Origin: an uncultured bacterium
Lineage (GTDB): Bacteria; Hydrogenedentota; Hydrogenedentia; Hydrogenedentales; JAEUWI01
DNA length: 64,000 nt
NCBI GenBank assembly: GCA_963977445.1
Contig: CAXBPH010000003.1
Coordinates: 9,964 to 73,963, forward strand
Direction of reading: 5' to 3'
Shown here: positions 42,799-62,430 of the stretch, piece by piece
How the letters are laid out: each line of letters starts with the position of its first letter
Numbering within the stretch: position 1 is the first letter of the stretch
Made by a program: the position numbers and the translations under genes
The notes under the pieces: generated by a model
Database searches by the model: none
The model's input: the letters and a program-made list of their open reading frames with translations, nothing else
Told to the model about the DNA's origin: nothing

Positions 42799-43608
42799 TT
42801 AGACGGCGTCGGAAACGATTTTCTTTCCGGTAACCGGGCAAACTTTGGCTTCACCTTCGGAAGAAGCGGCTTTGGCCTTGTCACACTCAGACTTGGCTTT
42901 GTCGCAGGTCTTGGCTTCGCCTTCGGAAGAAGCAGCCTTGGCCTTGTCACACTCAGCTTTCGCTTTGTCACAAGTCTTGGCTTCACCTTCGGAAGAAGCA
43001 GCCTTGGCCTTGTCACAAGCGGACTTGGGGCATTCGCCTTCAGAGGAAGCAGCCTTCGCTTTGTCACAGGTCTTGGCTTCACCTTCAGAAGAAGCGGCTT
43101 TGGCCTTGTCACACTCAGACGTGGCTTTGTCACAGGTCTTGGCTTCGCCTTCGGAAGAAGCAGCCTTGGCCTTGTCACAGGTCTTGGCTTCACCTTCGGA
43201 AGAAGCGGCCTTCGCTTTATCGCACTGCTTCGCTTCACCTTCGGAGGAAGCAGCCTTGGCTACCTTCGTCTTGCAGCAGCTGGACGCTTCACCTTCAGAG
43301 GAAGCCGCCAACGCCTTATCGAAGGTCGCCTGCCGGTCGGCGATCAGCTTGGCTTTCTTTTCGCATGGCTGAAAGGCATCTTCATTCGCTGCGGAAACCG
43401 TCTGCATGCCGAAGAAGGAGGCAACACTGTTCTTAGCACTCGTGATGGCGCAGGAACCTGATGCTCCGTTGTTCGCAACAACGCCAGCAGTCGCCACGCC
43501 GGATACGACGACCATAGCAGCAACGAAGGATGCCCATTTGCCTTTGTTACGTTTCGGTGCTTGAGCCGTTTCTTCGGTCACAAGCTCTTCCTGATGTTCT
43601 TCGTTCAT
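42799..43608 (-). CDS. Membrane-anchored Cys/Ala/Lys/Glu-rich repeat protein
   Basis: One N-terminal hydrophobic helix, nine AASSEGE-containing units, 16 Cys; GGAG RBS before ATG 43608; own terminator. Confidence 0.75.
   Translation of the reverse strand: MNEEHQEELVTEETAQAPKRNKGKWASFVAAMVVVSGVATAGVVANNGASGSCAITSAKNSVASFFGMQTVSAANEDAFQPCEKKAKLIADRQATFDKALAASSEGEASSCCKTKVAKAASSEGEAKQCDKAKAASSEGEAKTCDKAKAASSEGEAKTCDKATSECDKAKAASSEGEAKTCDKAKAASSEGECPKSACDKAKAASSEGEAKTCDKAKAECDKAKAASSEGEAKTCDKAKSECDKAKAASSEGEAKVCPVTGKKIVSDAV
42846..43305 (-). repeat. Coding tandem repeat (45-bp units with 21-bp interspersed units)
   Basis: Recurrent ...ttggcttcaccttcggaagaagcagccttggccttgtcaca..., varying mainly at codon third positions. 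Confidence 0.85.
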
Positions 43609-44127
43609 TGAATATTGCTCCACAAGTGTTTAAATAAGTTACCCATGCAATCTACACGATAAACATAGATTCAAAATTGACCCGATTTCATGTCAAAACC
43701 TGGAATTATTCGTAGGGTTCAGCATAACAAAAACTCCGCCACTTCGCAATCCTGTCGAAGCGCGCATTTCCACGAACCCGAAAGAAATGAAAACAACCTA
43801 ACCATCTCAATTTAAAGGCGTTACATAAAGTGTGTCTTTAACCCACAATCGCTGGAACGGCTACGTCGTCAGCTCACCAAGTTTCAATGCAGTGCAATTT
43901 GTCCGAAAAATCGCTGAAAACAGGTTGGTTGGCCGAGAACATTCATGAAATAACTGCCCCATAGGCCATGCCCCCACGAAGCCCCGACTCAACCGGTATT
44001 TTGCCGACTTCCGACGATGTTGCCGATGTTTTTGAGGAAGTGGTGGCGGAGTCTTGTGCGGGTGTCTTGGTGGCTTGGGTCGTTGTCGGTCATCGTCGGC
44101 TGCCTTTTAAGATTGCCGAAAAGGGGC

Positions 44128-44331
44128 CTACTCTGCGGGATGCGCAGCCGTGATCGCGACGGGCTCCGAGGCCTCGCGGCTCTTGCGCATGAGTTCCTGG
44201 TCGATCATGCCAAGTTCGGCGGCCAAACCGGCTGCGGCTACGGACAGGCAGGTTTCTTCCACTTCCGCCGCGTGGCGCATCCATTCGGGAAAAGGAAACG
44301 CATCACTTGTGCTATTCATATCCATGGTCAT
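44128..44331 (-). CDS. Small hypothetical protein coupled to the GNAT gene (possibly truncated)
   Basis: ATGA overlap with the upstream GNAT stop; 67 aa. Confidence 0.45.
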   Translation of the reverse strand: MTMDMNSTSDAFPFPEWMRHAAEVEETCLSVAAAGLAAELGMIDQELMRKSREASEPVAITAAHPAE

Positions 44332-44894
44332 AGGTGCCTTTCCAGAATTCTCTCTGCATTGTCGCGCGAAAGTTCAAAGTACGTCAAGTTTTCGAAATCC
44401 ACGTCAGGGCCCAACGGTGTCATCCAACACGCCCCTCCGTAGAAGGGTACGGACTGCGGCAAGGCATGTAGGCCCACTCGACCTCCAAAGCCTTCGTCCC
44501 AGCTTTGCCGGACGGCGCGCTCGAACAGGTGGGGACCAATCAGGCCGTATTTTCGCGTTTGCCCGATACCTGGAATGGTCCAGTTCCAAGGGGCGACTTC
44601 CAGGAAGTCTATATATACCAGCGGCTTGCCATGATCTTCGCCGAGTTGGGAGAAATGTGTCCCAGACTTGGTCAGCATGGCACCCTGCCATTCGTCGTCA
44701 CAGACCACGGCGAATCCAGATGCAGGAACCAGGCGCAGGTGCTGCGCCTTGGCCCGCCAGTTCCAGTTGAGGCTCTGGGGTCGCTCGGAATAGGGAAGAC
44801 CCGCGCGGGCTATTTCGAGAAGGATGCGGGAGCGTTCTGGAGTCCACACCGATTCCAGTGTCAGCAGGTCTTCAGGCGCGACGAGGAGGGCCAA
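44328..44894 (-). CDS. GNAT-fold acetyltransferase-like protein, probably 5'-truncated
   Basis: 'LVYIDFLEVAPWN...GLIGPHLFERAVRQS...GRVGLHALPQSVPFY'; TTG start without RBS and an in-frame stop just upstream. Confidence 0.6.
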   Translation of the reverse strand: MALLVAPEDLLTLESVWTPERSRILLEIARAGLPYSERPQSLNWNWRAKAQHLRLVPASGFAVVCDDEWQGAMLTKSGTHFSQLGEDHGKPLVYIDFLEVAPWNWTIPGIGQTRKYGLIGPHLFERAVRQSWDEGFGGRVGLHALPQSVPFYGGACWMTPLGPDVDFENLTYFELSRDNAERILERHL

Positions 44895-44913: not shown

Positions 44914-45297
44914 CTACTCACCCGTTGCGATGGCACTGGCGAAAGCGATTCCGCTCGAATAGCTAATACTCACATGCCAATCTAAGATACCGAGCTCATC
45001 AGAAAACTTTGCCACGTCATGATTTAGCCTTACATATGGAGCCCCGTTCTTCCCCCGAAGAATTTCTATTCCATGCCACGTTATTTTTCCAGAAAACCCA
45101 GTACCAAGAGCCTTTGCGATGGCCTCCTTTGCGGCGTATCTACCTGCATAGTAACGATAGTGGGCTGGGGGAGGGTCGGCGGCTTCTCGCTCGTCTATTG
45201 AGCAAAAGCAATTGACCCAGCTATTCGTACCTGAGTCAATTTCATTTCTTATACGTTGAATTCTTTCAATATCGATTCCGTGACCAATGATTCGCAT
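44914..45297 (-). CDS. acpS: AcpS-type 4'-phosphopantetheinyl transferase
   Basis: 'IIGHGIDIERIQRI', 'AGRYAAKEAIAKALGTG', 'GAPYV', 'VSISYS'. Confidence 0.88.
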   Translation of the reverse strand: MRIIGHGIDIERIQRIRNEIDSGTNSWVNCFCSIDEREAADPPPAHYRYYAGRYAAKEAIAKALGTGFSGKITWHGIEILRGKNGAPYVRLNHDVAKFSDELGILDWHVSISYSSGIAFASAIATGE

Positions 45298-45305
45298 GCA
45301 TCCCC

Positions 45306-47189
45306 CTATTTTATTTCTCGAACTACGATATCTCTCTTGTCAAGATCCAGGTCAACAGTTCCGCCTCCACGAGATTTCAACTCTCTCCAAACTTTGAAGC
45401 CCTGCAGGATAGCGCGTTCCCATTCTCCCGTTGTGCATGCTGACACCTCAAGATGAAGGACGGTATTCTTTATCATTCGTAACAATTCACTACTGACCGA
45501 CAATTTACCCTCTAGGAAGTTGTAGTCACGAGCGTAGGCAAAAATCATTGCCGATAGTGCCTCTTCCGTGACAATCGCCCTTGCACCATCTTCCACTTCG
45601 TCAACTTTCGGATCACTCTTTCGCTTCGCTGTGAACATTTTCCTGACGAGTGGAGACCAACCTAGAACCGCAGCGAAAGACAAATGGATTACATCGTGGA
45701 GTCCGTAACCATCGTTCTCGTAAGCGTTGTCAGTCAAGTCATCACCAAACTGCTGACCCTTGTACATCACCCGTATTTTTGGGTTGTTGAATTCGTCATG
45801 GTATGTGCTGAAATCGAGTGAAAAACTACGTGGAAATTGTTCATTTTCGGGATATCCTGCATCGAACGGAGTTCGCGAAGGTAACGTGCCCCACCGTTCA
45901 TCACATTTCGCCAAGTTAAGCTCGGCGATCTCCTTCAGATCGAGATTAAACTTCGTGGCGACGTTTGCCACATACCACAGCAAGTCTCCGAGTTCCTCGC
46001 TTAAGCGGTCCTTAAACAATTTATGCGTGTCACCGTCCCGAAGATATTTCTTGTATTCACTCAACAATTCACCGGATTCGCTTGCGAGGCCCAACAGAGG
46101 AATCGTTAGCGAAGACTCGTCCACACCGGGATTTTGATCTGTCCCGGCAACTTTCTCTTGGTATTTGCCCATATCCATGGCTCTTGTCTCCAGGTTCACC
46201 CCCGTACTCGATCGATTTTCTTCGTTTGAGCTGGTACGGCTGATTAATTCGTTTATGCCCCACTTGGGTGGGTACCAATAGTCGATTGGTTCTAAAATAG
46301 GCTTCAGCTTCTGCTTTATGCGACTTCGCCCTGATTTTCCGACGAATTCTGGATGTACAACTCGCGCGTACTTGTCTACTTCACAAAACAGGTTTTGGCA
46401 ATCAATCAATTGAAGCGGCCTTCCCCATAAGTCGGAAAAATCTATGCCCAGTCGATTAAATTCCTCATCCTGCCTCTCGGTCACCCACCGGATTATTTGT
46501 GCAGTATCCTTCTTTCCCGGGTTTAGAAAGCACTTCTGGATTCCATCGAGTGCTCCGGGGCCTGCGACCACAAAGTCCATTTCAGAGAAGTTAATGATGG
46601 TGCTGTAGTTCAAATCGGTAACATACTGATAGGCTAGAAAGTTGCCTATCCCAGGTGATGACCGCATTGATTCGAACGCCTCTTCCATGGACTCCGAATC
46701 AGCAATTCGTTTCGGTAGCTCCGAAGACATCATGTATTCAAGTAACTTAAGATGGTTCTGGTGTTTGAATGTTAGCGAAAATTTTCGGACGGAGGGCATT
46801 ATATAGGCTGCGGAATAGATCCGCTGGCCTCGCGTCATCGCCTGACTTAAGACACGGTCATATGCCTTGTATGAGTAATCGGCGTATGTGAGATGGCCAA
46901 GCTCATTCTCAAGTAGTTTCCATGTATCGATGCGATTGAAAAGTTTGAATAGAATTATGCGAAAAAACACTTCAGCTGGATGAGTCGGGAGGTCTTCGTT
47001 GTATATTACGTTCCTAATGAGATATTGGCTCACTCTGTCAGAGGCTCTGTAGGCGTTCGTGAATTTGTGGTTTTGAAGCACAGCGTCATCCGTCCACGGA
47101 AGAGGGCGCTTACTTATTCGTCGAAAGAAGATTCTCTGTCGCTCGGCGGCGAATTTCCAATACGTATCGTATACAGGAGTAGTTTTCAT
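45306..47189 (-). CDS. aGPT-Pplase1 / 5-hmdU DNA kinase-like helical domain fused to MazG-like NTP pyrophosphatase and MazG C-terminal domain
   Basis: N-terminal 'YWKFAAERQRIF...PWTDDAVLQNHKFTNAYRASDRVSQYLI', HhH-like 'PGIGNFLAYQYVTDLNYS', 'GPGALDG', 'DCQNLFCEVDKY'; C-terminal 'LGLASESGELLSEYKK...EELGDLLWYVANVA', 'GDDLTDNAY..DGY..HDVIH', 'DEVEDGARA...EE'. Confidence 0.8.
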   Translation of the reverse strand: MKTTPVYDTYWKFAAERQRIFFRRISKRPLPWTDDAVLQNHKFTNAYRASDRVSQYLIRNVIYNEDLPTHPAEVFFRIILFKLFNRIDTWKLLENELGHLTYADYSYKAYDRVLSQAMTRGQRIYSAAYIMPSVRKFSLTFKHQNHLKLLEYMMSSELPKRIADSESMEEAFESMRSSPGIGNFLAYQYVTDLNYSTIINFSEMDFVVAGPGALDGIQKCFLNPGKKDTAQIIRWVTERQDEEFNRLGIDFSDLWGRPLQLIDCQNLFCEVDKYARVVHPEFVGKSGRSRIKQKLKPILEPIDYWYPPKWGINELISRTSSNEENRSSTGVNLETRAMDMGKYQEKVAGTDQNPGVDESSLTIPLLGLASESGELLSEYKKYLRDGDTHKLFKDRLSEELGDLLWYVANVATKFNLDLKEIAELNLAKCDERWGTLPSRTPFDAGYPENEQFPRSFSLDFSTYHDEFNNPKIRVMYKGQQFGDDLTDNAYENDGYGLHDVIHLSFAAVLGWSPLVRKMFTAKRKSDPKVDEVEDGARAIVTEEALSAMIFAYARDYNFLEGKLSVSSELLRMIKNTVLHLEVSACTTGEWERAILQGFKVWRELKSRGGGTVDLDLDKRDIVVREIK

Positions 47190-47237: not shown

Positions 47238-48062
47238 CTAAAAATCGTCATGAATAGGCTCGGAAACTGTGCTCGTCACAGATTTGCAAAGTATTTTGTT
47301 AGAGCGCGTGATCAAGTCACGTGCATTGCGTACCCCCCAAGGAAATTGTTTTGAATCCTTAATTCTGGCTGGGCCTTTATCAATTTCGGCATGTGTGGAG
47401 ACACAGGTGAGCGAACCGACGGTTAGGCCAGCTCGCTCTGCCACAAACGCCTGAAGTTGCCCCAAACCGATTAGATTGCCAAGGCACCGAGATATGTACG
47501 TGTGGTTACGGTACATTGCTGTAAGCATCAAGCCCTTGTTTGGATGACATTTAAAGCTCAAAAAACTGAGGCATTGTCCCCCCCATCGACTACGCCCATC
47601 CTCCAAGGGATCGTAAACCGCTAGCTCATATGCCGACTTGAACTTCTGACCACCATTCTCGCGTTCTTGTAGCTTACCGATCAGCTGTTCTAGTGGATTG
47701 TATGTCTTGCCGAGCCTAGTCTGATGCCTGGTCATTCGCTCAAAGTACCTACCCCAGCGCCGGGTCTTCGTCAGTCTATCGAACGCTTCATGGTATTTCT
47801 CGTAGAACACCGGAGCCCCGTGCTGATTGTAGAGTGATTGGGGAAAAATCGTGTTACAGACCGTGGATATGGGGTAGCAATCGTACTTTCGTAGAAAATC
47901 GTCTACCTCTGAAATGATTTCATTGTCAGTTGAATCGAACGATACGGGATTTTCTACATCAACAATAACGTTGTATCCCTCATCATTGTGCTTCATGATC
48001 TCCATTGCAGCCGCTACCCACGCTCGCGCACAACTCTTCTGTGTCGGGATGGCGATGTACAT
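47238..48062 (-). CDS. Divergent thymidylate-synthase-fold protein
   Basis: 'GGQCLSFLSF' (catalytic Cys position), 'LMLTAMYRNH', 'LGNLIGL', 'GSLTCVSTHAEI' in TS motif order. Confidence 0.72.
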   Translation of the reverse strand: MYIAIPTQKSCARAWVAAAMEIMKHNDEGYNVIVDVENPVSFDSTDNEIISEVDDFLRKYDCYPISTVCNTIFPQSLYNQHGAPVFYEKYHEAFDRLTKTRRWGRYFERMTRHQTRLGKTYNPLEQLIGKLQERENGGQKFKSAYELAVYDPLEDGRSRWGGQCLSFLSFKCHPNKGLMLTAMYRNHTYISRCLGNLIGLGQLQAFVAERAGLTVGSLTCVSTHAEIDKGPARIKDSKQFPWGVRNARDLITRSNKILCKSVTSTVSEPIHDDF

Positions 48063-48074
48063 AGAAAGGTCTCC

Positions 48075-48722
48075 CTAATGCGTAATAAATGCGGAAAAGA
48101 TTCGCGACCCGAGATAACGTTTGCTCAACCAGGCGTAGCCATGAAGGCCCCAGGATTCACCCCAACTGTTTCTGATAGCGATATACTTTTCGCTGTTTTT
48201 CGTAGCTGTTGCGACGGCAACAACAGCGTGTCGTCGAACCGGGTCGATAGGCTCAGTTGAATCAACGATTCCAACGTTGTCCGGGGTATAGAACGCATCT
48301 GAGAACGACATCGCGAGGACGACGGGCTTGTCGGTTTGGATGCAGTCCCAAACGGCGTCAAATGTGGCGGTTAAGGCGCTAGTATGGCATTGGAAAAGTT
48401 GCCCTACGTTGTTGGGAGGCTTCCAGTGCGAAATTGGGCTTGGCAATGCCTTGAGGTAGGGCCAGGCGAGTTCGTTCGGTTGCCCGTCCCCAGTTAATGC
48501 AGAGCATACCCCCGGAATGGAAACACCCAAATCTGGAGAGCTTCTCTCCCACTTTATCGCGTAGTAGTATAGGTACTCACACGACAAGGGTTGCCAATTC
48601 CTCTCCAGTGCGGCGGAATGTGCGTCGCTCGTGGCGAACGCCAGGCATGTCGGGCGCGCTCCTTGATCGCGAGCGCTGCCAAAATATGGTCGTAGGTCGT
48701 GACGGATAATCATCGAACTCAT
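48075..48722 (-). CDS. Papain-like (C1) cysteine peptidase, no signal peptide
   Basis: 'RDQGARPTCLAFA' (Gln, Cys), 'RHAVVAV' (His), 'IRNSWGESWGLHGYAW' (Asn). Confidence 0.88.
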   Translation of the reverse strand: MSSMIIRHDLRPYFGSARDQGARPTCLAFATSDAHSAALERNWQPLSCEYLYYYAIKWERSSPDLGVSIPGVCSALTGDGQPNELAWPYLKALPSPISHWKPPNNVGQLFQCHTSALTATFDAVWDCIQTDKPVVLAMSFSDAFYTPDNVGIVDSTEPIDPVRRHAVVAVATATKNSEKYIAIRNSWGESWGLHGYAWLSKRYLGSRIFSAFITH

Positions 48723-49732
48723 GGGCGACTCAACATTGCTTGGCGTTGAGCTGGCAGGAGGCCGGTTTGTAGTGGTCCTGTCAAGTTTACATCAAATTCG
48801 AGCGACTGTAGAGATTCATCATCTGAGAGCCATGGTCGCTGTTCACGAAGATTCACGTGACCGAGTGCCGACTGCTCCGGTTCAGCCACGATCTTACGTT
48901 CGACAATACTACCGATTGCATTTTCAGTCGAGCGGGCCTCTCGGATGTCCTCAACTATTTTGAGGCCGACTTTGGAGAGACTGTCAAACGACCACATGTA
49001 CCCTGATGAAGCGTGTTCGATCAGCTCGAGAATCACGATGTCGTGCGCGCTTCCTTCAATTAGGAGCCTTTGATCGCCCATGCCAAGCACCCATATATCC
49101 GCATACCATGATTCTGGGGTGTGCTGTTTGGTGAGCTGCTGCTTGATAGATTTTGGTTGGGTTTTGAGCAGGGAGTCTCGTACTGATTTCGAAATCGCAT
49201 TGTGCTTGAGGAGCGCATGACAAGTCGCCGCATAGCTTGACCCCATCCGTAAGGCCAATTGGTAGACTATTTTCGGAGACGTTAGGTCTGAGCTCGCCCA
49301 CCCTTGTTGACCCATGTGGTGCGTGATTAGCCATTTCGGTGTAAGCAGTTCGGAGGCAAACGCATTTGCCTGCAGTTCTATGAGATCAAGAGCTGCCCCG
49401 CTCTCAAACGGAGTTCGGTTTAGCCTGGATTCGTCATCTAGACTAGACGAGTGCCCCATGACCGCGTGACCCAATTCGTGTGCTGCCGTGAAGCGCTGTA
49501 CGGAAAGGGGGCGTTGTGTGGTCAACAGAACTCCAGATCCATTTTCTTCCAAATAGCATCCGAGCAGCCCCTTCATCGGTTGGAACATGACAGGTATGTC
49601 GAGAGCTGCGAGAAGTCCAAACACATCGATGCGTCCCACCCCACTCTTTACCTTTTTTTTGACACCATGGCTAGCATGTAATCGGTTAGCAGCAAGAGCC
49701 GCCTCGAGTATAGCCTTACGAACGTCTGGCAT
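48719..49732 (-). CDS. ImmA/IrrE-family Zn metallopeptidase with a C-terminal chagasin (I42)-like domain
   Basis: 'QRFTAAHELGH', 'ELQANAFASELL'; C-terminal 'LELIEHASSGYMW...IGS...LREQRPW'. Confidence 0.82.
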   Translation of the reverse strand: MPDVRKAILEAALAANRLHASHGVKKKVKSGVGRIDVFGLLAALDIPVMFQPMKGLLGCYLEENGSGVLLTTQRPLSVQRFTAAHELGHAVMGHSSSLDDESRLNRTPFESGAALDLIELQANAFASELLTPKWLITHHMGQQGWASSDLTSPKIVYQLALRMGSSYAATCHALLKHNAISKSVRDSLLKTQPKSIKQQLTKQHTPESWYADIWVLGMGDQRLLIEGSAHDIVILELIEHASSGYMWSFDSLSKVGLKIVEDIREARSTENAIGSIVERKIVAEPEQSALGHVNLREQRPWLSDDESLQSLEFDVNLTGPLQTGLLPAQRQAMLSRP

Positions 49733-49735
49733 AGG

Positions 49736-50116
49736 TCAGCCCCCTTTTTGCGCTTTCCTCGATTTCAAGAATTCTGCGAATCTGGCGAGTTCGCTGCGAT
49801 CTTCCGGGGCCAATTCAGATACCTGCCGTGCCAGATGAGCGACTTCCTTGTCAACTGGATGCGTGTCAGCGGTTTCACCGGTAAAAAAGTTCAGAGACCT
49901 CCCGTAGAGTTCGGCTAATTTCTTGAGTTCAAACACTTCAACTTTCCTCAGCCCTGCTTCCATCAAAGATAGCGCGGAACGAGAAGTACCTACTTTCGTG
50001 GCTATTTCGTTCTGGGAGAATCCAACATACTCTCGGGCTTCACGTAGCCGGTCACCAAGTACCTTTCTATCGCTATCACCTTCAACTTTTTTATTGTTGG
50101 GAGCTCTACTACTCAT
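49736..50116 (-). CDS. XRE-family HTH transcriptional regulator
   Basis: 'LGDRLREAREYVGFSQNEIATKVGTSRSALSLMEAGLRKV'; ATGA overlap with the upstream gene. Confidence 0.9.
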   Translation of the reverse strand: MSSRAPNNKKVEGDSDRKVLGDRLREAREYVGFSQNEIATKVGTSRSALSLMEAGLRKVEVFELKKLAELYGRSLNFFTGETADTHPVDKEVAHLARQVSELAPEDRSELARFAEFLKSRKAQKGG

Positions 50117-50433
50117 TTGCTTCCCTTTCTTTTTTCCTCTTCTTGGCACAATTTATCTATACGCAGCATCATATCGTCAATTGCTTCATCAACACTTTGA
50201 TAGCCGCCTTTTCGTATAGTCTTGTCTGGAGGTAGTCGAAAACCAACGATTGGCTCGATGGCTAACAAAGTGCTTACGACGGCAAAGGAGTCCAAAAGTG
50301 GCTCCCAAACCTTGCGCAACAGAGCCCCCTCATCCACAATCTCGTCAAGCTTGTCAGTCAAAACTGCCCGAATTTCGCAAGAAGTCAAATGAACATCTTC
50401 GTCGATTTGAAACGCTGTGGATGTGTTTGCCAT
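50113..50433 (-). CDS. Acyl-carrier-protein-like small acidic protein
   Basis: 106 aa; 'LLDSFAVVSTLLAIEPIVGFRLP...SVDEAIDDM' resembles the ACP DS(Ppant)-helix II-loop-helix IV pattern; AGGAG RBS; PPTase in the same operon. Confidence 0.6.
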   Translation of the reverse strand: MANTSTAFQIDEDVHLTSCEIRAVLTDKLDEIVDEGALLRKVWEPLLDSFAVVSTLLAIEPIVGFRLPPDKTIRKGGYQSVDEAIDDMMLRIDKLCQEEEKRKGSK

Positions 50434-50458
50434 ACCGAATCTCCTGTGCTACTTGGTT

Positions 50459-50487
50459 AGGATACCAAAATTCAGTTGGAAAATCAA
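50459..50487 (-). promoter_or_regulatory. Candidate sigma-70 promoter of the island operon
   Basis: Minus strand TTGATT-17bp-TATCCT with TG extension, 25 bp before the ACP-like start. Confidence 0.55.
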
Positions 50488-50500
50488 ACACAAAATATCA

Positions 50501-50523
50501 ATATGTTAGATTTTCTAACATAT
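50501..50523. promoter_or_regulatory. Perfect palindrome, candidate XRE operator
   Basis: ATATGTTAGA-TTT-TCTAACATAT. Confidence 0.6.
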
Positions 50524-50525
50524 GG

Positions 50526-50607
50526 TATAGCCCAGGGTTTTGCTTGTTCGCGCTTGGGGCGTGAACTTGCTGCGCCCTGGGCTATAGTGTGTCACCCCGT
50601 TGGGGCT
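50526..50607. repeat. REP-like palindromic element (AGCCCAGGG...CCCTGGGCT family)
   Basis: TATAGCCCAGGG (50526-37) / CCCTGGGCTATA (50575-86) plus CCCCGTTGGGG hairpin; same motif family as 63691-64000. Confidence 0.75.
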
Positions 50608-50850
50608 ATTCAGATCGCCCTGTACGGATTCGCCGAAGAATGACACTTCGCCCGAAGTGGGCGCCAGCAACCCCATGAGCACCTTGATGGTCGTGCTCTT
50701 ACCCGCGCCATTGGGCCCGAGAAGGCCGAAGGCGGCCCCACGCTTTATTTGGAGATTGAGGCCGTGGACACCATCTCCGTGTTCGTAGGTTTTTACGAGT
50801 TCTGAGATTTCGACCACCGACTCGGTCTTCACCGGGGCCTGTTTATCCAT
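50608..50850 (-). pseudogene. 5' fragment of an ABC transporter ATP-binding gene
   Basis: 'FGLLGPNGAGKSTTIKVLMGLLAPTSGEV' Walker A; frame then runs into the REP with no Q-loop, signature or Walker B. Confidence 0.8.
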
Positions 50851-51001
50851 AACCTGCACGAAAACAACTCCCCTTGTTCTTCGCTGCAGAACCTGCGTGC
50901 AGCGGGAAAACTGCCAACGAAATAGCCCGATACGCTATAGTACAAGACATTAATCTATCTGACAATCCCCAAAGATTAACCGGAAAGCCCAATCAAAATT
51001 C

Positions 51002-56086: not shown

Positions 56087-57160
56087 TTACTTCGTCACCA
56101 ACCGCCCCACGGGATAGCCCGCCGAATAGTCAAATGCCCAACACCCATTGGGCGTGGTGTAGCAAATCGTTTCCTTGCGCTCAAAATCGGTCTTGCCCTG
56201 CCGCACCGCCGCATCAGGGCTGTCTGGCAACAACTGGGGATCGGCCACGACTTCCAGCATTTTGGTCGGGTCACCCATCCCATGTCCAGTGCCCGTGAAA
56301 ATGACGCCATCCAAATCTTTTTCTTCCGGATACCGTGCCACCACGGGCAGTCCCGCCGCCTTCATATTGGCAACCACCACCCGCTTGTCCTCGACCGGAC
56401 AGACCTCGTCCGTCGCGCCGTGGACCACAAAAATCTGCGTTTCCTGCCCATAGTCTTTCATTTGCTTGAGGTGGGTGGTCTCCCCGAGATCCCGAAGGAC
56501 CTGGGCATCGGCCGTAAGATAGGCGGGACTCTCGGGGTCCTGCGAATACCCCGCGTTCAGGGGCGAACCCCCTTCGAGATTAAAGGCGATGTCATCGCTC
56601 AACACGGCCATCCCACAGAAATCGATAATGGCGGCAAAGGTGCGTGGGGCCAGTTTGTTCGCCATCTGGGTCACATTGCCTCCGCCCGAATACCCGGTGC
56701 AGTAAATTCGACCGGTATGAAAAGCGATGCGCTCCCGTTCCAGCCCGCTATACATCCAATGAAGAGAACGCAGGGCATCTAAGGCCTGGAGGTAGCCATA
56801 GTCATAGGGCGGCATGGTCGTGCCATCATAGGGACCGCTCTGAAGATAGTCCACGCAAATAGCCACCACATTATAGCGGTCCGCCAGGGTCTGGGGATCG
56901 GGCACGCCGTCCGCATGGGTACCGGTCCAATAATGGAGGGTCAGAAAGAGGCCCGTCTTTTCATTAATATTCGCCTGCTTCATTCCCGGGTAATACACAT
57001 AAGCCCGAATCGTCCGGGGACCTTCCTGAAACGCCCATTCCTGTGCCGGGAGCTCCGCCGTGCCATTTTCGGCAGGCAAGGGCGGCCAGGGGCGATCGTC
57101 GGCGAAGGCACCACAGGCCAGACTCAACACAACAAGGACGATAGGGAATAATGACTTCAT
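56087..57160 (-). CDS. Secreted alpha/beta hydrolase (DUF2920-like), paralog A
   Basis: Signal peptide, GYSGG elbow, 'HGATDEVCP', 'GTGHG'. Confidence 0.78.
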   Translation of the reverse strand: MKSLFPIVLVVLSLACGAFADDRPWPPLPAENGTAELPAQEWAFQEGPRTIRAYVYYPGMKQANINEKTGLFLTLHYWTGTHADGVPDPQTLADRYNVVAICVDYLQSGPYDGTTMPPYDYGYLQALDALRSLHWMYSGLERERIAFHTGRIYCTGYSGGGNVTQMANKLAPRTFAAIIDFCGMAVLSDDIAFNLEGGSPLNAGYSQDPESPAYLTADAQVLRDLGETTHLKQMKDYGQETQIFVVHGATDEVCPVEDKRVVVANMKAAGLPVVARYPEEKDLDGVIFTGTGHGMGDPTKMLEVVADPQLLPDSPDAAVRQGKTDFERKETICYTTPNGCWAFDYSAGYPVGRLVTK

Positions 57161-57271
57161 GGACAAACTCCAAATTGTTTCGACTTAAGACTTCCCGCCT
57201 CAGGAGCTTAAGAAACTGGCCCCTGACGCAGCAAGATCACCGTGACTTATTCTTGTCGGTTTTCTAAATTG

Positions 57272-58462
57272 CTACCGAAGGCGAAACTCACCAATCAATC
57301 CAGGCCGTCGCGCAAGCAAACTCTCTAAGTGACTATCTGCCCACATTTCGATGCGAAGTGCCGAATCTGATTGGTTGTGGTTCTCGATTATTTGAATAGC
57401 ATCTGTGCTGAATCTGCCGGACGTCGCAATAATGTGAACATCAACTCGCGGCGGCTCCCAGAGTTTCATTTGCTCTCTCAAAGTCGCAATTTCCTTAGCA
57501 CCGACGCTTTTCGACAGCCAATGCTTGCATTGAATAATCACTCGCAGGCGAAACGTTCCGCCTAGTTTGTCGAGAAACACTCTTTGGCACGAAAGATCCC
57601 GTCCTCTGTCTGACGCGTTCGTCTTAGTAAGCCACTCCGCATTTTCGTAACCTTCGGTTTGCGATATCAGATTGAAAACCAATCTCTCGAAATCATCCTC
57701 ATCGATGGCTTCCCAGTTTAGCTTGGTTGCGATTTCTCCGACGGGCCTAGCCTTAACTAACTCACCCAAATCGTCGACGGCCACCGGTAATGGGTCGGAA
57801 CTACCGTATAAAATCTCCGTCATCCCCGCGTCGACAGCTGGCCAATCGTGCTTTATTATGTCTCGAAGATCGCCAATCATACCGTAATGAAGGTGCCTTT
57901 TCAGATCACCCCATCTCGGAGGACGCTTGGCACTACTTCCCAAGATAGTATCGATTCTGGAAACACTGGAGACCAATACTTCCCAGTCGTCACCGTCGAC
58001 AGAACCGTTAGCCTCGAGTTTGCTCGGATAGTCTGTGCGAAGACGCGCCAGCGCTAAATTGGCGATACGTATCTCTTCAAGTAATGCGTGACGAAATACC
58101 GTTCTCCGTGACCTATTCAACCGATAACGGTACTCTTTGAGGTCTTTCTCTGGCGAGAATATGTGCTCATCTATTATTACGGCACTCTCAAAGTCGCCAA
58201 TCTCCATGGCGTCAAATCTGAATTGTCCGATTTCATTTAGCTCTAAGAGTGAATCTGGCATTGTCCATCCATCAATCTTAGGAAGAGCTTCACGTACTTG
58301 ACGATAATCTCGGCAGCAATCATCGTACACTCCGTCGGTCATGTCCCCGAACGAAACACTTTCAGGAATCATCGATTTGATCTTTTCCCACAAAGCTTCT
58401 AACTTCACAAGATTGGCTTCGGTTGCTTCAAATTGCTTCAATGCATCGTTCAATGAGCTCAT
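57272..58462 (-). CDS. Mrr-like (PD-(D/E)xK) restriction endonuclease domain protein with a long helical N-terminus
   Basis: 'DFERLVFNL', 'DRGRDL', 'IIQCKHW', 'ATSGRFS'; more AT-rich than flanks. Confidence 0.8.
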   Translation of the reverse strand: MSSLNDALKQFEATEANLVKLEALWEKIKSMIPESVSFGDMTDGVYDDCCRDYRQVREALPKIDGWTMPDSLLELNEIGQFRFDAMEIGDFESAVIIDEHIFSPEKDLKEYRYRLNRSRRTVFRHALLEEIRIANLALARLRTDYPSKLEANGSVDGDDWEVLVSSVSRIDTILGSSAKRPPRWGDLKRHLHYGMIGDLRDIIKHDWPAVDAGMTEILYGSSDPLPVAVDDLGELVKARPVGEIATKLNWEAIDEDDFERLVFNLISQTEGYENAEWLTKTNASDRGRDLSCQRVFLDKLGGTFRLRVIIQCKHWLSKSVGAKEIATLREQMKLWEPPRVDVHIIATSGRFSTDAIQIIENHNQSDSALRIEMWADSHLESLLARRPGLIGEFRLR

Positions 58463-58508
58463 CTAGATTTGCTCCACCCTACAGCTGGCCGCGGTCACCC
58501 AACCCACC

Positions 58509-59582
58509 TTATTTCGTCACCATCCGCCCCACGGGATAGCCCGCCGAATAGTCGATTTCCCAACACCCATTGGGCGTGGTGTAGCAAATCGTTTCCTTGC
58601 GCTCAAAGTCGGCCGTACCCTGCCGCACCGCCGCATCGGGGCTGTCCGCAAGCAACTGGGGGTCGGCCATATGCTGCACAATCTTCGTGCGGTCACCGAG
58701 ACTGTGACCCGTACCCTTGAACACCACGTCGTCCAAGTGCGCATCGGTCAGGAACAACGCCGTCACCGGCATACCCGCCGCCACCATGTTCCGCACCACC
58801 TCTTCCTTGTCCGCCACGGGACAAACGTCGTCGGTTGTTCCATGGACCACAAAAATCTTCGTTTCCTGCCCGTAGTCCACCATCTGCTTCAGGTGGGTGG
58901 GATTGCTGAGATCACGCAGGGCCTGGGCGTCGGGGGAGAGGTATTCGGGAGTTGCCGGGTCCTTACTGTAGCCCGCGTTAAGCCGTGAGCCCCCTTCGAT
59001 ACCAAAGGCGATATCGTCGCTCAGTTTGGCCATGCCGCACATATCGACAATCGCGGCGAAGGTCCGGGGCGCAAGCTTATTGACCATCTGGGTCACGTTA
59101 CCGCCGCCCGAGCCGCCGGTAGAGTAGATACGCCCCGCGTTAAAGGCCGTACCCCCTTCCTGGAGTCCATTGTAGACCCAATACAGGGCACGAAGCGCAT
59201 CAAGCCCTTGCAGATAGCCATAGTCATAGGGCGGCATGTCGTCTTCGTATTTGCCGCTCTGAAGATAGTCCAGGCAGATGGCAACCGTGTTGTAGCGGTC
59301 CGCCAATAGCTGGGGGTCGGCCGTGCCTGACGCATTGGTGCCACCCCAATTGTGGAGGCTGAGGAAAAGACCCGTGTGTTCGTTCACATTGGCGAGGGCC
59401 TTGCCGGGGTAATACACATAGGCCACAAACGTCCGTGGACCGTCCTGAAAGGCCCATTCCTGCGCGGGGAGTTCCGCCGATGCGTTTTCAGCGGGCAACG
59501 CGGGCCAGGGCCGCTCATCGGCGGCATAGGCTGAAATAGAAGCAAGACAGGCCAACAAGGCAAGGGCGATTCGAAAACGCAT
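58509..59582 (-). CDS. Secreted alpha/beta hydrolase (DUF2920-like), paralog B
   Basis: Signal peptide, GGSGG elbow, 'HGTTDDVCP', 'GTGHS'; collinear with paralog A. Confidence 0.78.
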   Translation of the reverse strand: MRFRIALALLACLASISAYAADERPWPALPAENASAELPAQEWAFQDGPRTFVAYVYYPGKALANVNEHTGLFLSLHNWGGTNASGTADPQLLADRYNTVAICLDYLQSGKYEDDMPPYDYGYLQGLDALRALYWVYNGLQEGGTAFNAGRIYSTGGSGGGNVTQMVNKLAPRTFAAIVDMCGMAKLSDDIAFGIEGGSRLNAGYSKDPATPEYLSPDAQALRDLSNPTHLKQMVDYGQETKIFVVHGTTDDVCPVADKEEVVRNMVAAGMPVTALFLTDAHLDDVVFKGTGHSLGDRTKIVQHMADPQLLADSPDAAVRQGTADFERKETICYTTPNGCWEIDYSAGYPVGRMVTK

Positions 59583-60261: not shown

Positions 60262-60909
60262 CTACTCCACGTCGGTCAGCGGTAATTCTGTGGGCAGGGT
60301 TATCTCAAAGAGCCCCATAAACTGGGTCAAAATGCGATAGGTCAGGCCCCAAATCGTGTAGGGGCCGTGGTTAAAGCAGGAAAAGGCACGCTGTTCCGGG
60401 TCCGGCGGGTAATAATACGCCTCGATGTTGTTCACATCGCCCAGATAGCGGAGCGGCACCCACACGGTGGCCGCCACTTCGTAGTTGTGGGTCAAGGGAC
60501 CCGGCGCGGGACAATAATAGACTATCGGACACACGGCCAACTCAAAGGTGCGCAACCGACCACCGGAAATATCACTCAGCCGCCCAATGACCATCTCTTC
60601 GGTGAGCTCCAGGCCCACTTCCTCCAAGGTCTCCCGCCGGGCCGCGGCCTCGATGCTCGCGTCGGTCGTTTCGACATGGCCACCGGGAAAGGCCATATGG
60701 CCGGACCAGGGGTCCTCTTCGCGCTCGGCCCGCTTCATAAACAGGGCCTCCAGCCCACCATCGGTACCATGGCGCAGTATCATGGCCACCGCGGCCACCC
60801 GGTCTACCTGGGCAGAGGGGGTCGTTTCGGGACAAAAGGCCGCCAGGCGCTGCTGAATCTCCGCCACACTATAGGCGTCGATTGGGGGCGGGGGTGGGGT
60901 AGAATGCAC
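60262..60909 (-). CDS. Nudix hydrolase, CoA pyrophosphatase-like
   Basis: 'WSGHMAFPGG...AARRETLEEVGL', 'IWGLTYRIL'; AAGGAG RBS before GTG 60909. Confidence 0.88.
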   Translation of the reverse strand: MHSTPPPPPIDAYSVAEIQQRLAAFCPETTPSAQVDRVAAVAMILRHGTDGGLEALFMKRAEREEDPWSGHMAFPGGHVETTDASIEAAARRETLEEVGLELTEEMVIGRLSDISGGRLRTFELAVCPIVYYCPAPGPLTHNYEVAATVWVPLRYLGDVNNIEAYYYPPDPEQRAFSCFNHGPYTIWGLTYRILTQFMGLFEITLPTELPLTDVE

Positions 60910-61194
60910 ATCGAACTCCTTACACACGCAGGCCCATTGTCTTACAGAAATAAGGGATGACAATCGGACCTTAAGATTGTGTATTATACGATATTGCATA
61001 CGGGGAATGAATCTCCCAGTTGCGTCAACGGTCGAACAATGGTATAAGGGACGCCGTGTTTTGGACGCGATTCTGGAGCGTTTCGCGCTGTGAACGCGTT
61101 TTCCCATGCTTTTTCCAATAGACAGGGCCACGAGATGTCGTCGGTTAGCAGTCTGTTTAAACCAAGGTAGTGTATTGTTTCTAAGGAGTTGACC

Positions 61195-62430
<1,236 letters not shown>

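Follow-up and report, generated by a model that had tools for sequence, protein, structure and literature searches.

A divergent acyl carrier-like protein heads a mobile, defense-associated operon of nucleotide-centered enzymes

The gene at 50113..50433 on the reverse strand of the window, by which we mean the whole 64,000-nucleotide stretch of DNA that was analyzed, is a genuine gene, and its product is best explained as a free-standing and highly divergent protein of the acyl/peptidyl carrier superfamily. It is the first of seven overlapping or nearly abutting genes that form a tightly packed operon in a low-GC dip and that encode, in this order, the carrier, a CapH-like HTH regulator, a CapP-like M78 protease with a chagasin-like domain, a C1 peptidase, a thymidylate-synthase-like (TS-like) protein, an HMUDK_hel-MazG-MazG_C fusion, and an AcpS-type phosphopantetheinyl transferase (PPTase). 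The best joint explanation, to which we assign a probability of about 0.6, is that the protein is a divergent carrier phosphopantetheinylated at Ser49, that it belongs to a mobile, defense-associated unit under CapH/CapP-like control, and that its arm serves the nucleotide-modifying core of that unit. The features of the operon, all on the reverse strand, are as follows.

50505..50519, reverse strand: operator-like box 1 (GTTAGAAAATCTAAC), the center of a 10+10 palindrome
50475..50489, reverse strand: operator-like box 2, an inverted copy of box 1, which overlaps a −35-like TTGATT (50482-50487)
50459..50464, reverse strand: putative −10-like hexamer TATCCT, 17 nt past the −35-like hexamer, found by reading the sequence
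50441..50445, reverse strand: ribosome-binding site AGGAG, 8 nt 5′ of the carrier start
50113..50433, reverse strand: carrier protein (ACP-like), 106 aa, ATG start; Ser49 is the putative phosphopantetheine site and residues 74-78 form a family-specific R-x-G-G-Y loop
49736..50116, reverse strand: XRE-type HTH regulator, CapH-like, 126 aa from the ATG that overlaps the carrier stop (Pfam HTH_31, 6.7e-12; PADLOC capH, 3.5e-15; present in 13/13 genome loci)
48719..49732, reverse strand: M78 (ImmA/IrrE, CapP-like) metalloprotease with HEXXH and a C-terminal chagasin-like (I42) domain (Peptidase_M78, 9.2e-11; PADLOC capP, 4.7e-16)
48075..48722, reverse strand: papain-family (C1) cysteine peptidase, its start overlapping the M78 stop (Pfam Peptidase_C1, 1.7e-11; present in 13/13 genome loci)
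47238..48062, reverse strand: TS-like protein, 274 aa, whose C-L-S motif contains a Cys that is invariant in the alignment (NCBIfam TIGR03283, 1.7e-10, below cut-off)
45306..47189, reverse strand: HMUDK_hel + MazG + MazG_C fusion, 627 aa (Pfam, 2.5e-114, 5.4e-6 and 8.3e-70, respectively)
44914..45297, reverse strand: AcpS-type 4′-phosphopantetheinyl transferase, 127 aa, single domain (Pfam, NCBIfam, motif alignment)

The peptide 'PLLDSFAVVSTLLAIEPIVGFRLP...YQSVDEAIDDM', in which an earlier note on this DNA had recognized an ACP pattern, is present in the translation of 50113-50433, and the TGA stop of this frame shares an ATGA with the ATG of the downstream HTH gene. Although a word-index search with the single protein returned no match beyond itself, an exhaustive HMMER search yielded 67 relatives at E ≤ 1e-3, 15 of them at E ≤ 1e-10. 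Two of the 67 (P0025 and P0054) are long, repeat-rich, eukaryote-like proteins devoid of a carrier domain; they were judged spurious and left out of every alignment. D48, S49 and G77 are invariant in the 52 aligned relatives, so the conservation of the DS serine that the note had named as a check is borne out, and G76 and Y78 are, like G77, invariant or nearly so. The pattern DS...GG[Y/C] occurs in 58 of 65 short matches, the other seven being fragments, frameshifted reads or one GGH variant. The protein is acidic, with a pI of 4.66. That the frame is a chance ORF bearing a chance motif, for which its small size and the absence of a Pfam match are the sole arguments, is refuted by the 67 relatives, the invariant residues of their alignment and the recurrence of the gene in 13 genome loci; the ribosome-binding site, the translational coupling, the confident predicted fold and a gene position shared by those 13 loci with 21 of the 23 on plasmids speak against it as well, and we consider its probability practically nil. 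The note's word "hidden" holds only in part: 6 of 32 relatives are labelled 'acyl carrier protein' in JGI, and RefSeq gives the same name to the first gene, the positional counterpart, of four plasmid loci.

At the sequence level, the evidence for membership in the carrier superfamily points both ways. The window protein matches no Pfam model, PF00550 included, even at E ≤ 1; it reaches the NCBIfam ACP model PRK07081 at an E of 0.013 and 15.4 bits, far under the cut-off, and DltC (4bpg) aligns with it across LLDSF at an E of 0.63. The family profile, on the other hand, matches solved ACPs in the PDB (best E 6.2e-5), placing its DS on the DS of their attachment serine, and 59 of the 60 chains listed are ACPs or complex-I ACP subunits, where chains named SDAP, NDUFAB1 or ACPM are taken by us to be ACPs. 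PF00550 is touched at E ≤ 0.1 by 14 of the 52 family members. Structural neighbors of the carrier in the Atlas bear carrier or ACP names (scores 0.93-0.96, TM 0.70-0.75). In the AF2 model (pLDDT 84.6), helices span residues 15-36, 49-63, 69-72 and 81-104, which gives the order helix I, long loop, II, short III, IV; Ser49 opens helix II, and a bridge between residues 47 and 78 lies beside it. A Foldseek search of the PDB with this model returned no match at E ≤ 1e-3 (best 5kp6_B, E 0.54, TM 0.39/0.49); about 30 of the top 50 entries are carrier proteins by our own reading, so that the ranking alone leans to carriers. The AlphaFold/Foldseek comparison proposed earlier was thus favorable in helix order and Atlas similarity and unfavorable in that a significant Foldseek match in the PDB is missing. 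The conserved DS serine, the profile match to solved ACPs and the AF2 model together support the claim that the protein is ACP-like.

The last core gene does encode an AcpS-type PPTase, as had been proposed. Its product matches Pfam ACPS PF01648 at an E of 2.9e-16 and 59.9 bits (cut-off 25) and passes NCBIfam TIGR00516 acpS with 64.3 bits (cut-off 59.8) and TIGR00556 with 72 (cut-off 45.35). The motifs G-x-D and K-E-A-x-x-K are kept, with D9, K57, E58 and K62 invariant in 8/8 orthologues; we take D9 to be the catalytic Asp and K57, E58 and K62 to be the residues of the catalytic Glu/Lys motif. The statement that AcpS closes the operon is correct for the conserved genes, but a further ORF (44328-44894), which has no counterpart in related loci, follows it on the same strand. 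FAS, PKS or NRPS domains were found neither in the 8 island ORFs nor in 35 further large ORFs across the window, in agreement with the description of AcpS and carrier as standing without fatty-acid or polyketide genes.

AcpS lies downstream in 9 of 13 genome loci, that is, in all nine whose contig includes that end. On plasmids, a PPTase adjoins the system in 6 of 23 cases and in four arrangements: an AcpS gene is divergent upstream in three, co-directional upstream in one and internal in one, and an Sfp-type gene is immediately upstream on a Haloarcula plasmid. No PPTase was detected within 7-9 kb in the other 17 plasmid versions by the AcpS profile and record annotation, a procedure that unannotated Sfp-type genes or genes beyond 7-9 kb would escape. 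Since AcpS recurs in the genome loci and PPTases stand beside plasmid versions, the carrier/PPTase pairing is well supported; the "dedicated" pair of the note is confirmed as a recurrent association and not as an obligatory one, and in the 17 plasmid versions a host enzyme presumably takes over. Helix II charge hardly differs between AcpS-linked and unlinked carriers (means −2.7 and −3.1, with some rows mis-registered), and at S+2, Arg is found in 13/13 genome loci, Ala in the window protein and V or S in the plasmid versions; nothing is concluded from the comparison. A predicted complex of three AcpS copies with the carrier, computed with alignments as input, scored 0.01 against a mark of 0.32, was run without controls and is counted neither way.

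Thirteen genome loci show the same gene order, and the carrier directly precedes the HTH gene in all of them as it does in the window. These loci were found with a 6-sequence alignment that catches only WEPLLDS-like or PPDKxVRKGG-like stretches and are therefore a biased, closely related sample. Two of them look decayed: in L003 and L004 the carrier stands without TS-like, HMUDK and AcpS genes, and the M78 gene of L004 is split. Versions of the system are also carried by 23 plasmids, one of them haloarchaeal, with the carrier gene first and directly before the HTH gene in 21. A canonical carrier can hold the equivalent position: the gene that leads HTH-ImmA-TS-like on one Streptomyces plasmid encodes a PF00550 protein (32.3 bits, cut-off 20.8). 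HMUDK_hel is absent from most proteobacterial plasmid versions, which retain the carrier, so a carrier tied to the HMUDK domain does not hold. Streptomyces and cyanobacterial versions retain the carrier without C1, and therefore the suggestion that it is a decoy or cofactor for the protease fails as an account of its primary role. Every version with C1 has the invariant G-G-aromatic loop in its carrier, and the five versions without C1 do not.

In all, the system spans at least six bacterial phyla and one haloarchaeal plasmid. Its constant parts are the carrier, the HTH regulator, the M78 protease, the TS-like enzyme and the MazG-MazG_C pyrophosphatase; its variable parts are HMUDK_hel, the C1 peptidase with the chagasin-like inhibitor domain, UDG, dCTP deaminase and the PPTase. 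On plasmids its neighbors are annotated as Shedu, AbiEii, dCTP deaminase, caspase/CHAT and RES-Xre. A collection of 50,697 phage records held no match to the carrier or to the TS-like protein. We regard this widespread gene cluster as a probable anti-phage system directed at nucleotides.

Inhibitor_I42 on the window M78 protein (5.8e-5, 23.7 bits) stays under the cut-off of 27.2, and the orthologue in locus L014 reaches 28.9 bits. The TS-like protein has no Pfam match, and the 627-residue protein matches HMUDK_hel, MazG and MazG_C at E ≤ 1 and neither a P-loop kinase nor an aGPT-Pplase model. The carrier, C1, TS-like, HMUDK and AcpS proteins fall outside the models of PADLOC. Upstream of the carrier gene, the box 1 and box 2 pair occurs once per locus and nowhere else in the window and seven loci (strict regular expression) and can be seen by eye in 13/13 genome loci; GTTTGATTTTC lies 51-80 nt upstream of the carrier start in 10 of the 13. 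The consensus promoter scan did not report the TATCCT at 50459..50464.

Combining these observations, we propose the following model. The operon would be a single transcription unit that starts with the carrier gene, and because the operator-like inverted repeat overlaps the promoter, the CapH-like HTH protein probably represses it and the CapP-like M78 protease probably relieves this repression. The unit as a whole would be a horizontally moving, defense-island-associated system. Ser49, at the N-terminus of helix II, would receive 4′-phosphopantetheine from CoA, transferred by the operon's own AcpS or, where no PPTase is linked, by a host enzyme. Our best guess is that the pantetheine arm provides a protein-bound thiol or thioester, which the nucleotide-modifying core may use to retain a small group or intermediate or to pass it on. 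The loading step is a guess, as the operon encodes no adenylating or acyl-transferring enzyme. As AcpS-type enzymes can accept acyl-CoAs, a separate loading enzyme would not be needed.

Other roles for such a protein have to be weighed against this model. The carrier could be phosphopantetheinylated and yet stand outside the nucleotide chemistry, as a switch for the HTH/M78 pair (and for C1/I42 where present) whose apo, holo or acyl state, set by the CoA/acyl-CoA pool or an infection cue, decides on repressor cleavage or C1 release. Whatever the other genes do, the carrier gene is the immediate 5′ neighbor of the HTH gene in the window, in 13/13 genome and in 21/23 plasmid loci, and this constant adjacency to the HTH-M78 pair would suit a regulatory role no less than a catalytic one. 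The window also has the carrier stop overlapping the start of the HTH gene; the G-G-aromatic loop tracks C1 and is missing in the five C1-less versions, and the bridge between residues 47 and 78 in the model sits beside Ser49. Moreover, the TS/HMUDK_hel defense DS-4 (PMC13092281) is active without a carrier protein, so this chemistry needs none in general. The gene order may, however, be merely inherited, the correlation with C1 may stem from a single evolutionary split, and no binding test succeeded. As we also know of no precedent for an ACP that controls an ImmA-type protease, we regard such a switch as a credible but distinctly less probable role. That the carrier is instead a substrate or decoy cut by C1 or M78, for instance at the R-x-G-G|Y loop, with cleavage as the activating event, would suit the near-invariance of G76, G77 and Y78 and the co-occurrence of the loop with C1 and the I42 domain. 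Yet there are carriers that have neither C1 beside them nor the loop, and the invariant DS and linked PPTases would go unexplained, which makes this role very improbable.

The protein might also have an ACP fold and no prosthetic group, its DS serving protein contact only, as in an adaptor or an antitoxin-like inhibitor, while the PPTases serve another substrate or hitchhike. The 17 of 23 plasmid versions without a PPTase, the failure of the window protein to match the Pfam model and the basic residues in helix II (S+2 being Arg in 13/13 genome loci), at positions where canonical ACPs are acidic, all lean this way. Against them stand the Asp-Ser of 52/52 relatives at the exact structural attachment site and the recruitment of PPTases in five gene arrangements and from two enzyme classes, even in an archaeon; to our knowledge, archaea as a rule lack a housekeeping ACP and AcpS. 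In bacteria, a housekeeping AcpS could serve the PPTase-less versions. We therefore think an unmodified carrier improbable. We are equally doubtful of a bolder chemistry, in which the thiol of the holo-carrier is itself the reactant and captures an electrophilic C5-methylene pyrimidine intermediate from the TS-like enzyme or from HMUDK_hel-activated 5-hydroxymethyl-uracil, tethering the nucleotide or DNA covalently to the carrier for processing or release by MazG-MazG_C and C1. A phosphopantetheinylated carrier whose arm serves the nucleotide-modifying core remains our preferred reading.

The established settings of carrier proteins and their PPTases are lipid, polyketide, non-ribosomal peptide and teichoic-acid pathways and a small number of cofactor pathways. 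In the present case a divergent carrier belongs to the constant components of a mobile, defense-island-associated system whose core is a TS-like enzyme with MazG-type nucleotide enzymes, where one would not expect it. The haloarchaeal plasmid stands out, since archaea generally lack ACP. If Ser49 is modified and required, this would be a new use of phosphopantetheine, in nucleotide-centered immunity or its regulation, and the cargo of the arm, readable by mass spectrometry, would give a handle on the chemistry of TS/HMUDK_hel/MazG defense systems. Were the thiol the reactant, the system would be the first carrier-protein-dependent pathway of nucleotide or DNA modification, an immune effector in bacteria and archaea. 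Full-text literature searches turned up no paper in which MazG, TS, HMUDK or anti-phage systems are connected with an ACP or a PPTase; the neighborhood may already be described in Burroughs et al. 2015 (NAR 43:10633), and novelty holds with that reservation. PMC13092281 cites that work for predicting several such domains as defensive, and lists MazG, MazG-C and aGPT-Pplase only as predicted, unvalidated defense domains.

Like the carrier, canonical ACPs (AcpP, ACPM/NDUFAB1, DltC; PF00550) are acidic proteins of about 100 aa. As in the predicted structure of the carrier, they have four helices with a long loop I, a D-S-(L/F) where helix II begins and a helix IV of the (S/T)-V-x-x-A-I-D-like type. 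They lack the R-x-G-G-Y loop that is invariant before helix IV of the carrier, which scores under the Pfam threshold, has a less acidic helix II and, because its helices I and IV are longer, superposes poorly on them (TM 0.35-0.5); nor does it have FAS, PKS, NRPS or Dlt partner genes nearby. As in known AcpS-ACP pairs, the enzyme passes the acpS models, keeps the motifs and is linked to a DS-bearing carrier, but here it is an additional copy reserved for a mobile island, can be swapped for an Sfp-type enzyme or be absent, and would modify a divergent carrier.

In CapH/CapP regulation of CBASS and other systems, the pair similarly occupies the 5′ side of the operon behind a palindromic operator, whereas in the island the carrier gene precedes it, the protease bears a chagasin-like domain and a papain-family peptidase gene follows; none of the 8 island proteins is a CD-NTase or a cyclic-nucleotide-activated effector, so the likeness to CBASS is confined to the regulator pair. 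The encoding of an I42-like domain and a C1 peptidase side by side recalls chagasin (I42)-papain (C1) pairs, except that the putative inhibitor is fused to the M78 protease within a regulated multi-gene system.

DS-4 ('NTTI'), composed of TS, dNMP kinase, HMUDK_hel, NDT/TIR-like and Nmad2 proteins, protected E. coli from phages (PMC13092281). It has a TS-fold enzyme and an HMUDK_hel protein in common with the island, and no other part of DS-4 recurs there; in Table S8 of that paper, DS-4 comprises no carrier, PPTase, HTH/M78, C1 or MazG-MazG_C, all of which the island has. Phage thymidine hypermodification (PMC8989533) employs a dUMP hydroxymethylase, a 5-hmdU DNA kinase and an aGPT-Pplase2 amino-acid:DNA transferase. 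It shares with the island a TS-fold enzyme and an HMUDK-named domain, although the island has the helical HMUDK domain alone, with no match to a P-loop kinase or aGPT-Pplase, and is cellular or plasmid-borne, unlike the phage clusters. In that chemistry the thiol of beta-mercaptoethanol adds to the electrophilic C5 methylene (PMC8989533), and by analogy with this published adduct, chemistry of the island on 5-phosphomethyl-dU is conceivable.

The gene that opens the operon starts with an ATG, has an AGGAG 8 nt upstream of it, and ends in a TGA that overlaps the next start codon (ATGA). Its translation contains the acyl carrier protein (ACP)-like peptide quoted in the earlier note. Six closely spaced genes follow on the same strand, and two further ORFs lie 3′ of the last of them:

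50113-50433 (-): carrier ORF, 106 codons, ATG start
gene after the carrier (-): XRE-type HTH protein (PADLOC capH, 3.5e-15)
48719-49732 (-): M78 metalloprotease (PADLOC capP, 4.7e-16), plus a weak chagasin-like I42 match at its C-terminus
48075-48722 (-): papain-family C1 peptidase
next gene (-): thymidylate-synthase-like (TS-like) protein, 274 aa (TIGR03283, 1.7e-10; no Pfam match)
next gene (-): HMUDK_hel + MazG + MazG_C fusion, 627 aa
last core gene (-): AcpS, 127 aa, scoring above cut-off for Pfam ACPS and NCBIfam acpS
44328-44894 and 44128-44331 (-): two ORFs of 188 and 67 aa with host-like G+C

The assignment of the closing gene to the AcpS-type 4′-phosphopantetheinyl transferases (PPTases) was thereby borne out, as was the claim that fatty-acid and polyketide genes are missing: no FAS, PKS or NRPS domain was found in the eight island ORFs or in 35 further large ORFs from the window. 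The two ORFs beyond AcpS match nothing in Pfam, and none of the related loci has an equivalent of either. The M78 stop overlaps the C1 start, placing the papain-family peptidase next to the I42-bearing protein, and some orthologues are annotated in RefSeq as ‘protease inhibitor I42 family protein’; the two look like an inhibitor/protease pair that is integral to the regulator.

On its own, the carrier has no Pfam match at E<=1, reaches an E of 0.013 against an NCBIfam ACP model, and aligns over LLDSF to DltC in the PDB with an E of 0.63. HMMER, run exhaustively over 1.84 billion representatives, returned 67 proteins at E<=1e-3, two of which, long and spurious, were rejected as relatives. The DS...GG[Y/C] signature is retained in 58 of the 65 short matches, the other seven being fragments, frameshifts or one GGH. 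Across the 52 relatives aligned, D48, S49 and G77 never vary and G76 and Y78 hardly do, which bears out the expected conservation of the DS serine. The profile of these 52 matches solved ACPs (best E 6.2e-5), aligning the family DS to their attachment serine, and 59 of the 60 chains listed are ACPs by name. PF00550 is touched by 14 of the 52 members at E<=0.1, and 6 of 32 relatives are already named ‘acyl carrier protein’ by JGI. We take the family to be one of divergent carrier proteins, detectable by profile but not by the standard domain model.

The AlphaFold model (pLDDT 84.6, pTM 0.70) has helices at residues 15-36, 49-63, 69-72 and 81-104, so that Ser49 starts helix II, as in ACPs; a bridge from residue 47 to residue 78 sets the invariant GGY loop beside it. 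Carrier proteins are the ESM Atlas neighbors both by features and by structure. The order of the modeled helices fits the proposed ACP fold, but Foldseek against the PDB gave nothing at E<=1e-3, the best hit being an ACP (E 0.54, TM 0.39/0.49), with about 30 of the top 50 being carriers by our reading.

An inverted pair of 15-nt boxes lies at 50475-50519 (-), GTTAGAAAATC[G/T]AAC ... GTTTGATTTTC[C/G][A/G]AC, the second overlapping a −35-like TTGATT. Each of the 13 related genome loci has the pair exactly once, about 50-105 nt 5′ of the carrier gene and at no other site. Judging from sequence, the pair probably serves the CapH-like repressor as its operator, and its location makes the carrier part of the regulated unit. 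The island (G+C 0.44-0.53 versus ~0.6 on either side) sits between planctomycete-chromosome-like flanks (PSCyt, PSD1, DUF1501, sulfatases). Just 5′ of it ends a 114-aa N-terminal fragment of an ABC-transporter ATPase with the Walker A region (50515-50859, (-)), at the end of which lies an imperfect 28-nt inverted repeat (50526-50586). The island seems to have inserted in or next to this gene; no integrase or tRNA was found near it. Elsewhere in the window, a 274-aa ORF (42799-43623, (-)) consists mostly of KAKAASSEGEAKTCD-type repeats behind a hydrophobic N-terminal segment and has no family match. At 56087-59582 (-), two paralogous DUF2920/S9-hydrolase genes flank a protein with an Mrr-type restriction endonuclease domain (57272-58462), and a NUDIX-domain protein lies beyond (60262-62049); this region may hold more defense-related content.

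The 13 genome loci, from Planctomycetota and Gemmatimonadota, were found by scanning a single genome from each species with two conserved family peptides as seeds, which biases the sample to close relatives. The order carrier-HTH-M78-C1 is kept in all 13. The TS-like gene is present in 11, as is the HMUDK fusion (truncated by a contig end in two of these), and AcpS in nine, namely every locus with the HMUDK 3′ end on the contig. Loci L003 and L004 lack the part from TS-like to AcpS and look decayed; in L004 the M78 gene is also split. L001 has an HMUDK gene of 52 codons, L005 numerous frameshifts, and L011 a 1.5-kb insertion within M78. Part of the decay in these five may be MAG assembly error.

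A tblastn search with the carrier hit 7 plasmids, and one with the TS-like protein hit 23; all 23 TS-like-bearing loci were compared. The carrier profile matches the small first gene in 19 of them. In two cyanobacterial loci the carrier position is occupied by a small gene containing a DS motif, called ‘acyl carrier protein’ by RefSeq in one case; three Streptomyces positional genes bear this name too, and one of the three passes PF00550. One unannotated Burkholderia record is a TS-like fragment only, and one Mycobacterium locus has no carrier by profile. The constant set comprises carrier, HTH, M78, TS-like and MazG-MazG_C. HMUDK_hel may be fused, separate or missing, the Streptomyces and cyanobacterial versions lack C1, and UDG, dCTP deaminase and PPTase also vary. 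Annotated neighbors of defense type (Shedu, AbiEii, dCTP deaminase, caspase/CHAT, RES-Xre) make this a defense-island-like setting. Frequent neighbors in L014, L016, L019, L024, L026 and L036 are caspase/CHAT, a large metallophosphoesterase, a second canonical thymidylate synthase, and Shedu or dCTP deaminase, the last lying within the operon itself in L036.

A PPTase adjoins the system in 6 of the 23 plasmid loci: AcpS is upstream and divergent in three, upstream and co-directional in one, and between the TS-like and HTH genes in one, and an Sfp-type enzyme lies directly upstream on a Haloarcula plasmid. In our view, this repeated recruitment of two PPTase classes, in differing positions, is the strongest argument for a modified, important serine. 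The dedicated carrier/PPTase pair proposed earlier therefore stands as a recurrent association but not an obligatory one, since 17 plasmid loci lack a PPTase; there, a host enzyme presumably serves the carrier. The archaeal version (Haloarcula marina plasmid NZ_CP100410.1, 3224-8774) runs from the Sfp-type PPTase through carrier-HTH-M78-C1-TS-like, with HMUDK_hel and tmk divergent; such a pair is unusual in itself in an archaeon. A rearranged version on Mycobacterium sp. plasmid NZ_CP079868.1 (7550-15414) reads 148-aa ORF, TS-like, AcpS, HTH, M78, IS630 insertion, C1 fragment, a MazG-MazG_C fusion with a thymidylate-kinase domain, and HMUDK_hel. Here AcpS is present and the profile finds no carrier; the 148-aa ORF might encode a highly divergent carrier.

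As judged by comparing sequences, the island encodes a protein of carrier type, whose attachment serine is invariant, and an intact AcpS, within one regulated operon of a mobile, widely distributed system. We propose that AcpS phosphopantetheinylates Ser49, that HTH represses the operon and M78 releases it, by analogy with CapH/CapP, and that the I42 domain would restrain C1. Our guess is that the carrier arm serves the nucleotide enzymes by holding a group or an intermediate through its thiol. According to PMC8989533, the C5 methylene that arises during thymidine hypermodification is open to addition of a thiol, which keeps alive, as a guess, the boldest idea of the earlier note, that the carrier thiol is itself the nucleophile. 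Neither HMUDK_hel nor C1 can be the carrier’s sole partner, because the carrier survives the loss of each. A regulatory role is also in play, given the fixed position of the carrier ahead of the HTH-M78 pair. Furthermore, across L001-L036 the invariant carrier loop R-x-G-G-(Y/F/L) (residues 74-78, window ~50200-50214) is present in every locus with C1 and missing from the five C1-less loci (Streptomyces L022, L033, L035; cyanobacteria L031, L032). This restriction to versions with C1 and I42 hints at a secondary contact of the carrier with that module, although the co-occurrence may reflect one evolutionary split.

Full-text searches, with Burroughs et al. 2015 outside their range, found no paper linking an ACP or PPTase with such systems; PMC13092281 credits Burroughs et al. 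with predicting several of these domains to be defensive. The same paper describes DS-4, a validated anti-phage system with a TS-fold enzyme and HMUDK_hel. Considering (i) the genomic context and (ii) DS-4, the island system would have an anti-phage or anti-plasmid role. It has both a TS-fold enzyme and HMUDK_hel in common with DS-4, and what is new about its carrier and PPTase is the functional setting, the fold and the enzyme pair being known already.
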